A stretch of 64,000 nt of DNA from Planctomycetota bacterium. GTDB lineage: Bacteria > Planctomycetota > PLA2 > JAEUHO01. Each line of letters opens with the position of its first letter. Position 1 is the first letter of the stretch. Under the pieces are notes generated by a model. That model searched no databases. It saw nothing but the letters and a program-made list of their open reading frames with translations, and was not told where the DNA came from. Below, in pieces: positions 2,384 to 63,259 of the stretch. The stretch spans positions 13,113 to 77,112 of the forward strand of contig JASJDY010000014.1 in the NCBI GenBank assembly GCA_030065025.1. The letters run 5' to 3'. A program made the position numbers and the translations under genes.

Positions 2384-2609
2384 GTCACGCCGCCTGCAGA
2401 CGGATGGTCCCCCGGAGGGGGGGATCTGCCCATCACGAATGCGAGCGCGGACTCGAGCGCGTTCTCGTGACGGCTTGAGGTGCGGCCGTCGCTGCCGACC
2501 AAGCCGGTCGCTGGCCGCACTGCGACAACCTCCAGTAGATCGACGGCCGCCTGCCGCCCCCCCTCAAGGGTGAGGGCGACAGGCGCCCTCCGATCCTAGA
2601 GGTACTCAC

Positions 2610-2996
2610 ATGTCCCACCCGACCACGACCGGCTTCGCCCATCAGCGACTCGACGCCTTTCATGCGGCCATGGAACTGACGATTGGTGTCGAGCGCCTCA
2701 CCACAGCGTTCCCCCGTGGCCATTCGAACCTGAAGGACCAGGTCCGACGCGCCGCCTCCGCAACCATGCGCAACATCACCGAAGGCGCGAACCGGTGGAG
2801 CTCGCGAGACAAGTCTGCTCGCTTTGTCATCGCTCGCGGTGAGTGCGGTGAGTGCGACGCAGCTCTCGAGATGATCGAGCGTCTTGGGCTGGCCTCGGGT
2901 CACGACATCCGCGCTATCCGCCGCTTGGCGGACCGCGTTGGTGCCATGCTCACAGGCTTGATCAAGCGACATCGCGCGGCCGACGAATCATCGTAG
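2610..2996 (+). CDS. Four helix bundle protein (23S rRNA IVP/Avd-like superfamily), copy 1
   Basis: HQRLDAF, LKDQVRRAASATMRNITEG and ARGECGECDAAL match the family pattern DQxRRAaxSxxxNIaEG. RBS AGAGGT upstream. Confidence 0.85.
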   Translation: MSHPTTTGFAHQRLDAFHAAMELTIGVERLTTAFPRGHSNLKDQVRRAASATMRNITEGANRWSSRDKSARFVIARGECGECDAALEMIERLGLASGHDIRAIRRLADRVGAMLTGLIKRHRAADESS

Positions 2997-3008
2997 CCGC
3001 CATGCGAA

Positions 3009-3854
3009 CTAGCTCGGTGTCGCCACCGCCGGCGCGAAGCGCGCGCTGCGGATCTCGCCTGCCTCGAGCACGAGGTAGCGCGACGGCTCCACCTCCTCCC
3101 ACACCTCCGAGAGCTCGGTGAGCGGCTCGGAGACGATCGCGCGGGCATCCTCGGAGAAGACGCCGAGGTGATCGGCGTGCTCACTAGGGACGAGCTGCCG
3201 CAACGCGGCAACGCGCTTGGAGTGGTACATCGTCGGAGCAGCGCCCTCTGTCGCGTAGCGCACCGCGTGCACGGCCCGCCCGTCGGACAGCGCGACCGCC
3301 ATCTCGACTCCCTCGTTGACGCCGTGGGCGCGACAGACATCCTCGATGAAGCCGGCCGTGCGCTCGAGGGCACCCTGCACGTCCTGCTCCAAGCCGAAGC
3401 CGAGCGCCAGATGGAACATCACCTCGGAGTCGGTGGTGCCCTCGACGTAGCGGAAGAGGTCGGCGGGAATCTCCAGCACAAGCTCACGGCGAACCTCGTT
3501 CCATCCGTGGATCTGGCCGTTGTGGACGAAGAGCCAGCGTCCGTGCCGGAACGGATGACAGTTGCTGTACTGCGTGGCCGTGTGCGTCGCGGCACGGACG
3601 TGCGCGAGGAAGAGGGGCGAGCGGACGTGCTGGCAGAGGTCGAAGAGGTTCGGATCGCTCCAAGCCGGCTGCACGTGCTTGTACAGCCCGGGACGCTCGG
3701 TGGCGTCGTACCAGCCCACACCGAAGCCGTCCCCGTTGGTCGTGGTGGCCGAGGCGCGGGCCGAGAGGCTCTGGTCGATCAGCGAGTGGCGGGGCCGCAA
3801 GATCAGCTCCCGCAAGTAGATGGGACCACCCGCGTAAGCCAGCCAACGACACAT
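3009..3854 (-). CDS. Class II glutamine amidotransferase (YafJ/EgtC-like)
   Basis: N-terminal MCRW (Cys2), NGDGFGVGWY, NCHPF, HNG, GTTDSE. Confidence 0.9.
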   Translation of the reverse strand: MCRWLAYAGGPIYLRELILRPRHSLIDQSLSARASATTTNGDGFGVGWYDATERPGLYKHVQPAWSDPNLFDLCQHVRSPLFLAHVRAATHTATQYSNCHPFRHGRWLFVHNGQIHGWNEVRRELVLEIPADLFRYVEGTTDSEVMFHLALGFGLEQDVQGALERTAGFIEDVCRAHGVNEGVEMAVALSDGRAVHAVRYATEGAAPTMYHSKRVAALRQLVPSEHADHLGVFSEDARAIVSEPLTELSEVWEEVEPSRYLVLEAGEIRSARFAPAVATPS

Positions 3855-3891
3855 GATCGATCTCCCCGGCCCGGAGGCCGGTCTCAGGAGG

Positions 3892-4074
3892 TCAGGCCTT
3901 CTCCTCCTCGGTGGCTTCGGTCTCGTCCTCGTCCTCGGGCAGCTGGAGGTAGCGCTGTGCGATCGCCTCGTGGTCGTCTTCCTCGGGCAGGCGGTCCTTC
4001 ATCCGGGCCTTCTTCTCGCGGCGCTTCTGCGCCTTGCGCCGCTCCCGGGCGCGCTTGGACGGAGAATCGGACAT
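3892..4074 (-). CDS. Small 60-aa protein, basic N-half and acidic C-half
   Basis: GAGGTG RBS 6 nt upstream of ATG at 4074. MSDSPSKRARERRKAQKRREKK...EDEDETEATEEEKA. Confidence 0.6.
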   Translation of the reverse strand: MSDSPSKRARERRKAQKRREKKARMKDRLPEEDDHEAIAQRYLQLPEDEDETEATEEEKA

Positions 4075-4280
4075 AGGCGTCACCTCGCTGCTGAACCCGC
4101 CCGCGAAGGGCGTTCGGCCCACAGGTTCGCACGGATCGGCGGGATGCACAGTCAGGTTCCGGCTGCCCGGGGATTCGCGGCGCCGAAGTCGCCCGCGGGA
4201 GCGGGGACTTCTGGCATAGCGCCCGGCTCGCGGTGAGGATCAGCGGCCAGCAGCCGCGTCGTATCGGGGATCCGAGCCGT

Positions 4281-5369
4281 ATGCAGACCACCAAGGCCGT
4301 GTTCCAGCGAGGCGCCTCGAGCGCGTTCGTCCGGGAGGTGAAGGACGAGGTCGCCTCGTACTTCCGGGATCGCGGTATCTCGGACAAGGCGAACGCAGCG
4401 ATGGTCGCGAAGACCGTCTTGCTCCTCGGGGTGACGTTCGGCGCCTACGGGCTGCTCTTCACGGGCTGGTTCTCGCCGCTCGGCATGCTCGGCCTCGCGA
4501 TCGTCATGGGTATCGGCTGGGCCGGCATCGGCTTCGGCATCGGACACGACGCGATCCACGGGGCCTACTCGAAGCACACGTGGGTGAACCGGCTGCTGGG
4601 CTACAGCTTCGAGCTCCTGGGCGCGAGCAGCTACATGTGGCGGCTCACGCACAACGGCATCCACCACACGTGGACGAATGTCCGCGACATCGACGAGGAC
4701 CTCGTGGTCACGCCGGTCCTGCGGCTGACGCCGCACTCCGAGCGGCGCTGGTTCCACCGCTTCCAGACCCTGTTCGCGCTGCCCGCCTACGCCACGGCAA
4801 CCCTCTTCTGGGTCTTCGCCAAGGACTACAAGTACTTCTTCGCGCGGCAGCTGGGCCCCCACCGCGACAGGCGCCATCCGCCGAGCGCCTGGGTCGGGAT
4901 GGTCCTCGGCAAGGTGGTCCACTACGGCTGGACGATCGTGCTGCCGCTGCTCTTCCTGGACCTCGCGTGGTGGCAGTTCGTGATCGGCTACCTGACCGTG
5001 CACCTCACGGCCGGGCTGATCCTCGGCGTCATCTTCATGCTCGCGCACGTCGTGGAGCAGGTGGAGTACCCGGAGCCCGACACCGAGGGCCAGCTCCCGG
5101 ACGCGTGGATGGTGCACCAGCTGCGTACGACGGCGGACTTCGCCCGCCGCAACCGCCTGTTGGGCTGGTACGTCGGCGGCCTCAACTTCCAGGTGGAGCA
5201 CCACCTCTTCCCCAAGGTGTGCAGCGTCCACTACCACAAGATCAGTCCGATCGTCGAGGAGGTCGCCCGCAAGCACGGGGTGCCGTTCAACGACAACCCG
5301 ACGTTCCTCCGGGCCCTGGGCTCCCACTTCCGCATGCTGCACCGCCTGGGACGCCCCGCCGCGGCCTAG
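4281..5369 (+). CDS. Membrane fatty acid (acyl-lipid/acyl-CoA) desaturase
   Basis: His boxes HDAIH, HNGIHH and QVEHH, with TM segments. Start at 4281 is preferred over the ORF-track start at 4233. Confidence 0.9.
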   Translation: MQTTKAVFQRGASSAFVREVKDEVASYFRDRGISDKANAAMVAKTVLLLGVTFGAYGLLFTGWFSPLGMLGLAIVMGIGWAGIGFGIGHDAIHGAYSKHTWVNRLLGYSFELLGASSYMWRLTHNGIHHTWTNVRDIDEDLVVTPVLRLTPHSERRWFHRFQTLFALPAYATATLFWVFAKDYKYFFARQLGPHRDRRHPPSAWVGMVLGKVVHYGWTIVLPLLFLDLAWWQFVIGYLTVHLTAGLILGVIFMLAHVVEQVEYPEPDTEGQLPDAWMVHQLRTTADFARRNRLLGWYVGGLNFQVEHHLFPKVCSVHYHKISPIVEEVARKHGVPFNDNPTFLRALGSHFRMLHRLGRPAAA

Positions 5370-62388: not shown

Positions 62389-62410
62389 CGCCAGCCGCGT
62401 TTTCGAACGT

Positions 62411-62488
62411 GGTGCCTGTAGCTCAGTTGGTTAGAGCACCGGATTGTGGTTCCGGGGGTCGGGGGTTCAAATCCCCTCAGGCACCCCA
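62411..62488 (+). tRNA. tRNA-His (GTG)
   Basis: G-1 plus acceptor stem GTGCCTG/CAGGCAC, anticodon arm CCGGA-TTGTGGT-TCCGG, T-loop TTCAAAT, discriminator C, encoded CCA. Confidence 0.97.
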
Positions 62489-62507
62489 AACGCGGCGCAG
62501 CCGCGTT

Positions 62508-62711
62508 GGGGTGCCCTTGGCACCCGTCTTTCTTTCAAGGGGGGCAGAGCCCCCCTTGCGGTCTCGACGTGGCGGAACGAACGCATCCAGGCGTAGGTAC
62601 GCCGGACACGCCGCCACGATCGAGACCTATCCCCCACTCACCCAGCTCCGCTGGGTGGGGGTGCCAGGCACGCAGTTCATCTTCAAGGGGGGCAGCCCCC
62701 CCTATCCCCCA
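62508..62711. repeat. Modular hairpin-rich direct repeats between tRNA-His and four-helix-bundle copy 2
   Basis: Two ~46-bp units GGGGTGCC..GGCAC..TTCAAGGGGGGCAG..CCCCCC (62508-555, 62658-702). Exact 11-bp CCTATCCCCCA at 62626 and 62701. Long hairpin GGTCTCGACGTGGCGG/CCGCCACGATCGAGACC (62560-627). Confidence 0.8.
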
Positions 62712-63034
62712 TCTTTCAGTGCAGCCTGCCGCTGGCGCGTGATCAGGCCGGTCAGCATCGCGCCGACGCGATCCGCCAGATGCCGGAGCGCACGCACGTC
62801 GTACGCCGGGGCCAGCCGGAGGCGTTCGATCATCTCCAAAGCGGCATCGCACTCACCCGACTCGCCTCGCGCGATGACAAAGCGTGCGGCCTTGTCGCGC
62901 GGAGCCCAGCGGTTCGCGCCCTCGGTGATGTTGCGCATCGTTGCCGAGGCTGCTCGGCGGACCTGGTCCTTCAGATCCGCGTGACCGCGCGGAAGCGACG
63001 CGGCAATGCGCTCGACTCCGACGGTCAGTTCCAT
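62702..63034 (-). CDS. Four helix bundle protein, copy 2 (possibly 5'-damaged)
   Basis: About 80% aa identity to copy 1 by manual alignment. HQRLDAFHAA is present in frame upstream of Met 63034, but there is no ATG/GTG/TTG before the in-frame TGA at 63172-70. Confidence 0.8.
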   Translation of the reverse strand: MELTVGVERIAASLPRGHADLKDQVRRAASATMRNITEGANRWAPRDKAARFVIARGESGECDAALEMIERLRLAPAYDVRALRHLADRVGAMLTGLITRQRQAALKDGG

Positions 63035-63214
63035 GGCCGCATGGAACGCGTCGAGTCGCTGGTGCGGAGGGGATTGGAAGGGGAGGCGCGCAGCTTCCCC
63101 TTGCCGCGCCGTAGGCGCGTCCAGTCCGCGCGTGAGCGCGGGACGGTGGCCTGTTGCCGCCCGGCCCGTTCATCCTCCCTGGGACTGTGCAACTGGAAGT
63201 GCGGTCCGCAGACG

Positions 63215-63259
63215 CACGCCCACACCCACACCCGCCCCCTCCCCCCTACCATCTCCCCC
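63215..63259 (-). other. Hexamer-periodic G-rich tract, potential G-quadruplex
   Basis: Plus strand CACGCC CACACC CACACC CGCCCC CTCCCC CCTACC. Minus strand GGGGGG-A-GGGGG-C-GGG-TGT-GGG-TGT-GGG. Confidence 0.55.

Follow-up and report, generated by a model that had tools for sequence, protein, structure and literature searches.

Dispersed PF05635 gene cassettes with structured leaders in the genome of a marine-sediment planctomycete

The two genes of the window and their genomic family

The window, a 64,000-nt stretch of DNA from a 3.9-Mb, 89% complete marine-sediment Planctomycetota MAG, contains two open reading frames (ORFs) of the four-helix-bundle family PF05635/TIGR02436 (Table 1). Copy 1 (2610-2996, plus strand) lies between a pilin-like gene (stop TAG 2381-2383) and a convergent gene for a class-II glutamine amidotransferase (GATase; stop CTA 3009-3011), and copy 2 (62702-63034, minus strand) between tRNA-His and a fatty-acid desaturase gene; the two share 92 of 114 residues (81%, BLASTP E 3e-69), and both exceed the cut-offs of Pfam PF05635 (33.8 bits), at 71.1 and 55.9 bits, and of TIGR02436 (24 bits), at 72.4 and 60.5 bits. 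The original prediction had described two ~80% identical four-helix-bundle genes, each between unrelated neighbors, and both points are borne out; the homology of its cassette "pair" also holds, but the pair is in fact two of 12 PF05635 matches in the genome, all of them singletons on separate contigs.

Table 1. Features of the two PF05635 loci (window positions).
Feature	Position	Strand	Basis or detail
Copy 1 insertion/deletion unit	2380-3008	+	629 nt; empty-site unitig
5' part of the indel, unconserved among paralogs, with CCCCCGGAGGGGG hairpin	2384-2432	+	Alignment of 13 leaders
H1, 5' arm, palindrome of 6-nt repeats	2433-2472	+	Sharp 5' conservation boundary
H2, local hairpin, variable in sequence and length among copies	2473-2530	+	Fold -28.1 kcal/mol, z -2.2
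H3, long stem-loop; 3' arm holds the Shine-Dalgarno site	2532-2602	+	RNAalifold, pair counts, 13 sequences
Copy 1 ORF, 128 aa, PF05635/TIGR02436 four-helix bundle, pI 10.2	2610-2996	+	Profile matches
tRNA-His(GTG), convergent with copy 2, 213 nt off	62412-62488	+	ARAGORN; Rfam RF00005, 69.6 bits
GGGGGGGCTGCCCCCC hairpin, from last base of copy 2 stop codon downstream	62687-62702	-	Sequence
Copy 2, 5'-truncated PF05635 gene, leader absent	62702-63064	-	Homology starts at H11/Q12 codon of family
Repeat A, structured dispersed repeat of ~88 nt, replaces copy 2 5' end	63065-63150		Fold z -2.15
Repeat B, 30-nt core CCGCCCGGCCCGTTCATCCTCCCTGGGAC	63157-63202		~25 genomic copies

Nine of the 12 copies form one subfamily, in which leader and ORF are held in common at 73-83% nucleotide identity and with sharp ends; the shared unit of ~570 nt (canonically ~0.6 kb) consists of three leader elements, H1, H2 and H3, followed by the ORF, which encodes a basic four-helix-bundle protein of 125-130 aa with the IVP/Avd fold, and similarity extends no further than the stop codon. 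In copy 1 the unit is complete; its leader is the conserved family leader (2433-2609), and its Shine-Dalgarno sequence AGAGG (2598-2602; GGAGG in most copies) precedes the ATG by 7 nt. The 3' end of the cassette falls at the stop codon or at most ~15 nt from it and mostly abuts a convergent gene at that gene's 3' end; since at least 24% of convergent gene pairs in the host genome are no more than 15 nt apart, a flush 3' end alone is weak evidence for targeting. The upstream gene is co-directional at seven of 10 scorable loci, where it ends 37-66 nt before H1, and divergent at three, so that H1 could be a mere promoter or operator. The indel units carry 50-66 nt upstream of H1 that are unconserved between paralogs; in copy 1, the fold of positions 2384-2432 is no more stable than expected from shuffling (z 0.10). 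Contig breaks fall within the cassette unit. The GC3 of the cassette ORFs is atypical in all 12 copies (0.73-0.81 vs. 0.88-0.96 in host genes); copy 1, at 0.73, adjoins genes that themselves span 0.88-0.96.

Between paralogs, dS is ~1.0-1.3 and dN/dS ~0.1, indicating strong purifying selection on the ORFs; this dS exceeds the 0.3-0.7 found for two genes in common with a same-genus genome. Near-identical copies were not found in the genome, where the closest paralog is 77-83% identical; together with a dS above that of the congener, this does not establish recent transposition within the genome, and the cassette paralogs are, judged by their synonymous divergence, old.

Copy 2 departs from this pattern. 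Its first in-frame start, ATG 63034, is equivalent to M21 of the family and has no ribosome-binding site (RBS); since homology continues upstream to ~63064 with neither ATG, GTG or TTG nor an RBS, the gene is 5'-truncated, and its unitigs break at 63064/63065. Copy 2 is a derivative whose leader, RBS and first ~10 codons have been lost to another dispersed repeat, so that normal expression is improbable, and as yet its substitutions give no sign of relaxed selection (mean dN 0.095, omega 0.097). Its 5' side consists of two unrelated repeats that are likewise dispersed, at 63065-63150 and 63157-63202, the first with ~10 genomic copies at 78-97.5% identity (the closest, C254:307-387, at 97.5%), the second usually leading into GTGCAA-type 6-nt tandem arrays. 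With the leader of copy 2 gone, the two window copies do not have equivalent flanks: the hairpin-rich flanks of 200+ nt that had been predicted are indeed GC-rich, hairpin-forming and longer than 200 nt at both copies, but they are not homologous to each other. The hairpin at the copy 2 stop codon folds at -15.2 kcal/mol, which is not significant (z -1.2); only eight hairpins like it occur in the whole genome. Adjacency of copy 2 to a tRNA gene was likewise correctly noted, but no integrase or island signature was found there; in the same-genus genome G002, homology starts at rbfA, spans the tRNA and ends 176 nt beyond it, at window position 62664.

Leader elements and gene-less palindromes

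The family consensus of H1 (ACGAGC GCGAGC GCGTTC TCGTGC TCGTTC TCGTGAC) is near-invariant between genomes; its period-6 self-match of 0.71 was reached by none of 5000 shuffles. The same period occurs in copy C31 and in a divergent copy, C206, where terminal inverted arms of 66 nt, with 473 nt between them, enclose the ORF; other PF05635 lineages in the relatives have flanking arms of period 6 or 7, with a lineage-specific repeat unit. For H2, no consensus structure was recovered over the copies. H3, the main stem of the leader, whose arms reach 31 nt in copies of the related genome G008, is paired in 93% of cells among 13 sequences, compared to ~48% with a slid partner, and covaries, with eight compensatory pairs against 3.4 +/- 1.1 in shuffles (none of 500 as high); copy C130 retains both arms around an insertion of ~94 nt within the loop. 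The whole leader folds with z -4.4, and its retention despite a paralog dS of ~1.0-1.3 indicates that it is under selection. H3 is predicted, from pairing backed by covariation, to sequester the Shine-Dalgarno site. Seven further elements in the genome are gene-less palindromes of ~120-135 nt, built as arm, hairpin and arm, that carry an H1-type arm; the C203 arm subtype matches H1 of copy 1 over 41 nt (90%).

Empty sites and distribution among relatives

An empty form of the copy 1 site is represented by an 89-nt Logan metagenome unitig of run X3 (depth 2.4), in which bases 1-57 correspond to 2323-2379 (two mismatches) and the remaining 32 continue from 3009, with no letters between; here the pilin-like and GATase genes share a CTAG stop, and both ORFs are intact. 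At a second locus, C53, an empty form occurs in X1 at depth 7.7, next to 5.3-5.6 for the occupied form, and in X2 as well; its empty allele holds 20 unrelated nt, which indicates replacement and not clean insertion. The empty sites are documented by short Logan unitigs (89 and ~80 nt, shorter sides 30-32 nt), and no empty forms were found at five further loci. The ends of copy 1 (CCT/GTAG...GAA/CTAG, compared to CCT/CTAG when empty; the slash marks the junction) would fit duplication of CTAG with one synonymous change, which is only suggestive; CTAGC at both ends of C53 represents the neighbors' stop codons and is present in the empty allele too. The gene-bearing unit has no terminal inverted repeat around it, and a target-site duplication is not established.

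Cassettes are absent from 23 of 40 relatives, number one to three in congeners, and reach 18 and 21 in two genera; all five in G008 occupy different contexts, the same-genus G002 has no cassette at the copy 1 site, and no position is shared between genera, or with the congener at the copy 1 site. The cassettes vary in presence within one natural population, and sit elsewhere in related genomes. The original prediction of dispersed cassettes of gene plus structured flank, with no mobility enzyme adjoining, agrees with the nine copies that share structured leader and ORF, and with Pfam scans of the immediate neighbors of the two window copies, where no such enzyme was found. It had named as evidence against itself syntenic conservation with no empty sites, and flanks with neither conservation nor covariation; found were relatives with the cassette at other loci or lacking it, precise empty sites at copy 1 and C53 in a natural population, and a conserved, covarying leader. 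Movement "in trans" is only an inference; the paralogs are old (dS ~1), none of them near-identical, and no target-site duplication is established. On these data the copies probably belong to an accessory element family prone to gain and loss.

Affinities, possible mechanism and alternative explanations

The AlphaFold model of the copy 1 protein (pLDDT 93) consists of four helices; its best structural match is XCC0516 (2GSC; TM 0.82/0.91, 41% identity), and it also matches 2RLD (TM 0.80/0.88), in keeping with the four-helix-bundle fold of XCC0516 and BT_0352. XCC0516 is a homopentamer, and the PF05635 family is the cargo of rRNA intervening sequence (IVS) elements (PMC4990558). The ORF-bearing IVSs of 23S rRNA (S23p/IVP) in Leptospira, Coxiella burnetii and Xanthomonas thus share PF05635 with the planctomycete cassettes, at 41% identity to XCC0516, and further resemble them in their size of 0.4-0.6 kb, in having GC-rich complementary stretches that pair into long stems, in a patchy, selfish distribution, and in short tandem repeats upstream of the ORF, 6 nt long here and 7 nt in Coxiella, where GACAGAT repeats precede the S23p ATG (PMC4990558). 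In the IVS of Coxiella, RNase III cleaves a terminal stem of 28 bp (PMC4990558). In contrast to such IVSs, whose terminal repeats enclose the ORF, the main subfamily has both complementary arms (H1) 5' of the ORF, with H3 masking the RBS; no repeat was found 3' of the ORF at the window copies, where conservation does not go beyond the stop codon. The ORF of the Coxiella IVS is in decay, unlike those of the cassettes, on which purifying selection is strong and whose RBS is canonical; and the cassettes lie outside rRNA, between protein-coding genes. The window copies are not rRNA IVSs themselves; their neighbors are protein-coding or tRNA genes, and Rfam scans of both loci returned no rRNA. On balance we favor small accessory, IVS-like selfish cassettes, kin to the ORF-bearing 23S rRNA IVSs but lying between ordinary genes.

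MITEs, and REP/BIME elements with a trans-acting protein (REP-RAYT), are comparable in that dispersed, polymorphic intergenic palindromes of ~120-135 nt share arms with a protein-coding "master"; unlike in these systems, the protein has no known catalytic domain (neither DDE nor HUH), and no target-site duplication is defined. As in MITEs, copies are dispersed (nine of the subfamily and seven gene-less) and have empty sites at two loci; the gene-less elements have arms at both ends, whereas gene-bearing units have only the 5' arm, and near-identical copies, another mark of MITEs, are missing from the genome (best pair 83% nucleotide identity, dS ~1.0-1.3). Integron gene cassettes have their attC hairpin downstream of an ORF that lacks a promoter, and form cassette arrays with IntI nearby; this assignment was rejected, as the structured part here lies 5' of the ORF and each copy occurs singly, on a contig of its own.

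A mechanism for the IVS-like cassettes, in which the periodic arms are the target of the basic, Avd-like protein encoded beside them, H3 gates translation and enzymes act in trans, can be offered only tentatively as a whole. By analogy with XCC0516 and Avd, the cassette protein would probably form a homopentameric ring; it may bind the periodic arms, both those of the cassette that encodes it and those of the gene-less derivatives, in the form of RNA or of DNA, single- or double-stranded. H3 could block translation for as long as the stem stays closed and uncut; RNase III, which acts on rRNA IVSs, is one candidate for the cut. Host or unlinked enzymes would be needed for gain and loss, since no catalytic protein is encoded in the cassette and no reverse transcriptase in the genome; the original prediction had proposed to look for a reverse transcriptase elsewhere in the genome, and PF00078 (RVT_1) gave no match in the whole 89%-complete assembly.

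Alternatively, the copies could be an ordinary old paralog family, for example of a small nucleic-acid-binding regulator, in which H1 as promoter or operator and H3 as 5'UTR were co-duplicated and nothing is mobile; presence and absence would then reflect deletion and inter-strain homologous recombination, and the gene-less palindromes would be stray operators. We regard this as unlikely, even though it accommodates the old paralogs with omega ~0.1, a gene-bearing unit with no target-site duplication, terminal inverted repeat or linked transposase, the conservation of H1 in sequence beyond structure, as in a protein-binding DNA site, and the C53 alleles that differ through replacement. It does not sit well with unshared positions between genera and with the congener at the copy 1 site, copy numbers from 0 to 21 among relatives, the atypical GC3 of 12 of 12 copies, a copy 1 deletion that keeps both neighboring ORFs whole around a shared CTAG stop, two-armed gene-less palindromes that resemble MITEs more than operators, and the presence of the same gene family as cargo in rRNA IVS elements (PMC4990558).

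Less probable still is an RNA-level element like the rRNA IVS, in which RNase III, acting on the arms and H3, would remove the cassette from read-through transcripts of the neighboring gene and the protein would be dispensable cargo. Stems that do not enclose the ORF in the main subfamily imply that cleavage would not excise it; the strong purifying selection on ORFs with a good GGAGG RBS, and the sequence invariance of H1, unneeded for a generic dsRNA site, also argue against this explanation. It would account for the length and near-perfect pairing of H3, a GC-rich duplex in the size range of RNase III substrates whose G-U pairs fall on the sense strand, and for the co-directional gene ending 37-66 nt before H1 at seven of 10 scorable loci; RNase III does excise the Coxiella IVS, where S23p is apparently not made (PMC4990558).

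That the copies are orphan Avd genes of a diversity-generating retroelement (DGR) or other retroelement is highly improbable: the genome has no RVT_1 match at 89% completeness, no template/variable (TR/VR-like) direct repeats were found near the copies, and the 12 copies are single and dispersed. Avd, a pentamer that touches RNA and reverse transcriptase within the DGR, is nevertheless alike in its four-helix-bundle fold (chains of 4DWL and of the RNP 8UB7, TM 0.74-0.87, at a sequence identity of only 10-12%) and in its basic charge; a weak profile match to phrog_3206 "Avd" (E 1.7e-5) points the same way, and PF05635 is the commonest Pfam family near DGR reverse transcriptases (PMC10053308). 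The sequence RNITEG is present and fits the N-I-x-E-G motif of PF05635/TIGR02436.

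A dispersed PF05635 family in the planctomycete genome

The PF05635/TIGR02436 proteins are among the commoner small "hypothetical" families of bacteria, are related in structure to Avd, a DGR protein, and have been recognised since 1993 as cargo of rRNA intervening sequences (IVSs); to our knowledge, no function has been assigned to them. PF05635 has been treated as Avd-like (PMC10053308), and genes of the family have been found wedged in cas operons (PMC3936711). The two genes of the window, copy 1 and copy 2, both pass the PF05635 and TIGR02436 profiles and are homologous (92 of 114 residues identical, E 3e-69, BLASTP). 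Their homology upholds the original prediction of two related cassettes, but they are not a pair: a profile search of the Planctomycetota host genome G000 (3.9 Mb in 285 contigs, 89% complete) returned 12 PF05635 matches, all of them open frames. In this assembly the window occupies C40:13113-77112. Nine form a tight subfamily with 73-83% nucleotide identity, and three, on contigs C31, C206 and C27, are divergent. The protein of copy 1 (128 aa) is basic (pI 10.2) and is predicted to form a four-helix bundle (AlphaFold model, pLDDT 93); its top structural matches were XCC0516 (2GSC, 41% identity, TM 0.82/0.91) and BT_0352 (2RLD), followed by the chains of Avd in 8UB7, a DGR ribonucleoprotein, and in 4DWL. 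XCC0516 is a homopentameric ring (PMC4990558).

The unit shared by the subfamily consists of the ORF and approximately 180 nt of upstream non-coding DNA, which are conserved together in the alignment; similarity starts abruptly on the 5' side at TGACGAGCGCGAGCGCGTTCTCGTG... and ends on the 3' side at the stop codon, and copy 1 carries this unit completely. Contigs C160, C137 and C193, and several metagenome contigs, terminate inside the unit, as expected for a repeat. The nine copies fall within one 29-member clade together with copies from G008 (a MAG of another genus), from another MAG and from metagenomes, and clustering by genome within this clade is only partial; the runs that contain sequence of the window are marine-sediment DNA metagenomes. 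All 12 PF05635 genes have a GC3 of 0.73-0.81; five host genes of the window, the direct neighbors of copy 1 among them, have values of 0.88-0.96. Across 40 relatives, PF05635 genes were absent in 23, numbered one to three in five congeners, and reached 18 and 21 in two genera. A convergent downstream neighbor was found at 15 of 18 cassette loci, a real orientation bias, and the stop codon of this neighbor is often at most 15 nt away or shares a CTAG with the cassette stop. Targeting to the stop codon of the convergent gene was considered and set aside; at least 24% of convergent pairs genome-wide lie within 15 nt of each other, and the tight spacing alone was therefore dropped as evidence.

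Leader hairpins and periodic arms

The leader of copy 1 (191 nt) has a more stable fold than any of 200 shuffled sequences (z -4.4) and forms three successive hairpins, H1 to H3. The period-6 self-match of H1 (0.71) was equalled in none of 5000 shuffles. The 3' arm of H3 holds a GGAGG Shine-Dalgarno site (AGAGG in copy 1), with the ATG following 7 nt further. Across 13 sequences, 93% of cells in the H3 stem were paired, versus about 48% with partners slid, and eight compensatory pairs were counted, versus 3.4 +/- 1.1 in shuffles, none of 500 shuffles scoring that high; the leaders were taken from contigs encoding the protein, scans for close relatives in GTDB genomes and JGI metagenomes having given five and three loci. 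The C130 copy carries an insertion of about 94 nt in the H3 loop and retains both arms. Paralogs have reached saturation at synonymous sites (dS approximately 1.0-1.3), and since the leaders have nevertheless remained 73-77% identical, the leader must be under selection. H3 putatively gates translation. Rfam searches of both loci at a permissive E-value gave no match other than tRNA-His, and scans of the copy 1 locus for sigma-70 promoters and intrinsic terminators found none. With nine copies of conserved leader and ORF, and with covariation in H3, the prediction of dispersed cassettes made of a gene and a structured flank is borne out.

Features of the copy 1 leader, the copy 2 flank and other elements of genome G000 (window positions unless a contig is named)
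Feature	Location	Description
Copy 1 ORF	2610-2996(+)	PF05635/TIGR02436 gene
H1	2433-2472	Palindrome of 6-nt repeats; near-invariant in G000, G008 and metagenome contigs
H2		Variable hairpin; no consensus structure recovered
H3	2532-2602	Long stem; arms up to 31 nt in G008 copies
Copy 2 ORF	62702-63034(-)	PF05635/TIGR02436 gene
Repeat A	63065-63150	Structured, ~88 nt; ~10 genomic copies, 78-97.5% identity
Repeat B	63157-63202	~25 genomic copies; 30-nt core CCGCCCGGCCCGTTCATCCTCCCTGGGAC
ORF-less elements	C118, C90, C20, C203, C215, C192, C200	Complete copies
Y1_Tnp ORF	G000:C102:13706-13942 (L081:1276-1788)	On another contig

Periodic arms also accompany other PF05635 lineages. The divergent C206 copy has 66-nt inverted arms of CGTTTC/GGAAAC hexamers separated by 473 nt, and the C31 copy has a GAGCGN-hexamer hairpin upstream; among relatives, period-6 arms flank PF05635 lineages in G006 (CCGTGG) and, with other sequences, in G004 and G002, and period-7 arms (CGGGAAA) flank a lineage in G017. 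The repeat unit thus differs from one protein lineage to the next. The 18 copies of G019, a genome of another genus, are without periodic arms and have conserved 19-nt stems around a leader of about 115 nt that immediately precedes the gene. These 18 genes (L051-L068) lie within approximately 0.6 Mb (C7:2.27-2.85 Mb) of a 3.07-Mb contig and show two leader types. An nhmmer profile further recovered seven complete ORF-less elements of about 120-135 nt in G000, as well as partial copies; in the complete elements, a central hairpin lies between an H1-type arm and a second, inverted arm, and the arm of the C203 element is of the same subtype as the H1 of copy 1 and of the C213 copy. From the conservation of H1 in sequence, the separate repeat unit of each lineage and the retention of arms in gene-less copies, we infer that the basic and presumably ring-forming protein may bind the periodic arms.

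Cassette gain or loss, and its interpretation

The strongest evidence for accessory behavior comes from Logan unitigs of four sediment metagenome runs (X1-X4). Empty sites, which the original prediction had proposed looking for in relatives, occur in the population at copy 1 and at the C53 copy. At copy 1, an 89-nt unitig of X3 with two mismatches in its 57-nt left part joins position 2379 to 3009 with no letters between them, skipping 629 nt, and in this empty allele the CTAG stop is common to both convergent genes. At C53, unitigs of X1 and X2 have 20 nt in place of 637 nt that include the whole cassette; the depths in X1 (empty 7.7, occupied 5.3-5.6, flanks about 10-11) indicate that occupied and empty alleles coexist in one sample. 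Cassette gain or loss is thereby shown; no empty forms were seen among the unitigs at copy 2, C213, C106, C130 and C271. Joints inside cassettes (2474>2623; L004 1835>1989; L012 867>1100) were rejected as deletions, being cross-mapping of paralogous contigs. A further small insertion polymorphism was observed at a cassette boundary on C130, where a 70-nt high-copy segment (L011:2118-2187; summed depth about 64x) directly adjoins H1 on its outer side and is replaced by 15-19 nt in variants of X1, X2 and X3.

Comparison with relatives adds to this picture. In the same-genus genome G002, about 110 nt separate a homologue of gene 1364-2383 from a homologue of the small gene 3892-4149 downstream of it, and this site has neither the copy 1 cassette nor the GATase gene. 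The GATase, a class-II glutamine amidotransferase, is at a different locus in G002 (window 2384-3927 versus G002:C42 L013 and G002:C238 L020), which indicates that the neighborhood is rearranged beyond the cassette. With G006 as the outgroup, a rearranged neighborhood prevented polarisation of the copy 1 indel. The five subfamily copies of G008 adjoin genes whose homologues in G000 sit on cassette-free contigs.

Other observations limit the reading of the cassettes as mobile. The dS of approximately 1 between paralogs exceeds that of two genes common to G000 and G002 (0.3-0.7), and by this measure the cassette paralogs are old; no near-identical copies occur among the G000 cassettes. Neither a terminal inverted repeat nor a clear target duplication was found to bound the gene-bearing unit, and the indel units extend 50-66 nt upstream of H1 into sequence that is unconserved between paralogs. 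A reverse transcriptase, sought elsewhere in the genome as the earlier interpretation suggested, was not found in the 89%-complete G000 assembly, and DGR membership is rejected on this ground. The sole IS200-like Y1 (HUH) match in G000 is a weak one, a 171-aa ORF on C102 scoring 25.9 bits against Y1_Tnp (cut-off 23); no link to the cassettes, as in IS200/IS605-type mobilisation, was found, and the ORF could encode a RAYT-type enzyme acting on the many palindromic repeats of this genome. A PADLOC scan gave no meaningful match. The earlier observation is thus partly confirmed, and its interpretation as a mobile protein and structured-RNA element moved in trans is partly supported.

A family of IVS-like selfish cassettes is the most economical account. 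The IVS of Coxiella encodes a protein of the same family, has a 28-bp terminal stem that is cut by RNase III, and has tandem 7-nt repeats preceding the ORF (PMC4990558); in the present subfamily, by contrast, both complementary arrays lie 5' of the gene, the repeats have a 6-nt period, an RBS-masking stem has covariation support, and the ORFs are strongly conserved. A wider reading, which we regard as rather unlikely, takes PF05635 proteins to be the non-catalytic factor that binds the arms sequence-specifically in a large and so far undescribed class of minimal mobile elements. A ring-shaped pentamer would then read tandem 6- or 7-nt repeats, with its own unit for each protein lineage; the protein would mark or protect the element and recruit host nucleases or recombinases; MITE-like arm-hairpin-arm copies without a gene would use the protein in trans; and the classical 23S rRNA intervening sequences would be copies that landed in rRNA. 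If the link between protein and arm is true, it would connect an orphan protein family of very wide distribution with rRNA IVSs and with intergenic palindromic repeats of short period. H1 is a defined, near-invariant cis element to which binding of its own protein can be assayed directly; G000 also offers a covariation-backed RBS-masking stem, gene-less derivatives sharing the arms, and natural alleles, both occupied and empty, within a single population. These defined cis elements and alleles make the function of PF05635, a widespread orphan family, a testable question.

Copy 2 and its surroundings

Copy 2 is without a leader, and its similarity to the subfamily is confined to the ORF, starting at codon 11 or 12; its 5' side is composed of two other dispersed repeats, A and B. 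The other copies of repeat A are found at C254:307-387 and on C20, C29, C97, C57, C122, C79, C151 and C206; one copy is 97.5% identical to that truncating copy 2, and repeat A has thus spread recently. The core of repeat B reads on the opposite strand as a Shine-Dalgarno site, an ATG and the peptide MNGPG, and is usually followed by tandem hexamer arrays of GTGCAA/GTGGAA type; repeat B with these arrays constitutes a second 6-nt-periodic repeat family of G000. The similarity of copy 2 to the subfamily reaches upstream of its first ATG, to codons for H-Q-R-L-D, and this upstream stretch contains no ATG, GTG, TTG or RBS. Translation from the Shine-Dalgarno site and ATG within repeat B (63173) was considered and rejected, since this ATG lies in another frame than the four-helix-bundle ORF. 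Upstream homology that lacks a start or RBS, together with the out-of-frame ATG, identifies copy 2 as a 5'-truncated derivative. Its dN (0.095) and dN/dS (0.097) match the low values of the other copies; either the truncation is recent, or an internal start is still functional.

Homology of this locus with G002 runs from rbfA through tRNA-His to window position 62664 and then ends, and the desaturase gene beside copy 2 matches a contig different from that of rbfA in seven of seven relatives examined; copy 2 therefore lies at a synteny break. A tRNA-linked island was considered and rejected: the G002 homology continues 176 nt past tRNA-His, the scanned neighbors are rbfA and the desaturase, and neither the G002 comparison nor the neighbor scans revealed signs of a tRNA-targeting integrase. 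An 81-nt tRNA-Pro(CGG) called by ARAGORN at 59819-59899(-), within the 5' portion of the infB long reading frame, is probably a false positive, as Rfam gives no tRNA match at this position even with E<=1. Fatty-acid desaturase genes (PF00487) lie at most about 1.3 kb from each window copy, at 4233-5369(+) and 63260-64000(+); they are two different genes, and their proximity to both copies is probably coincidence.
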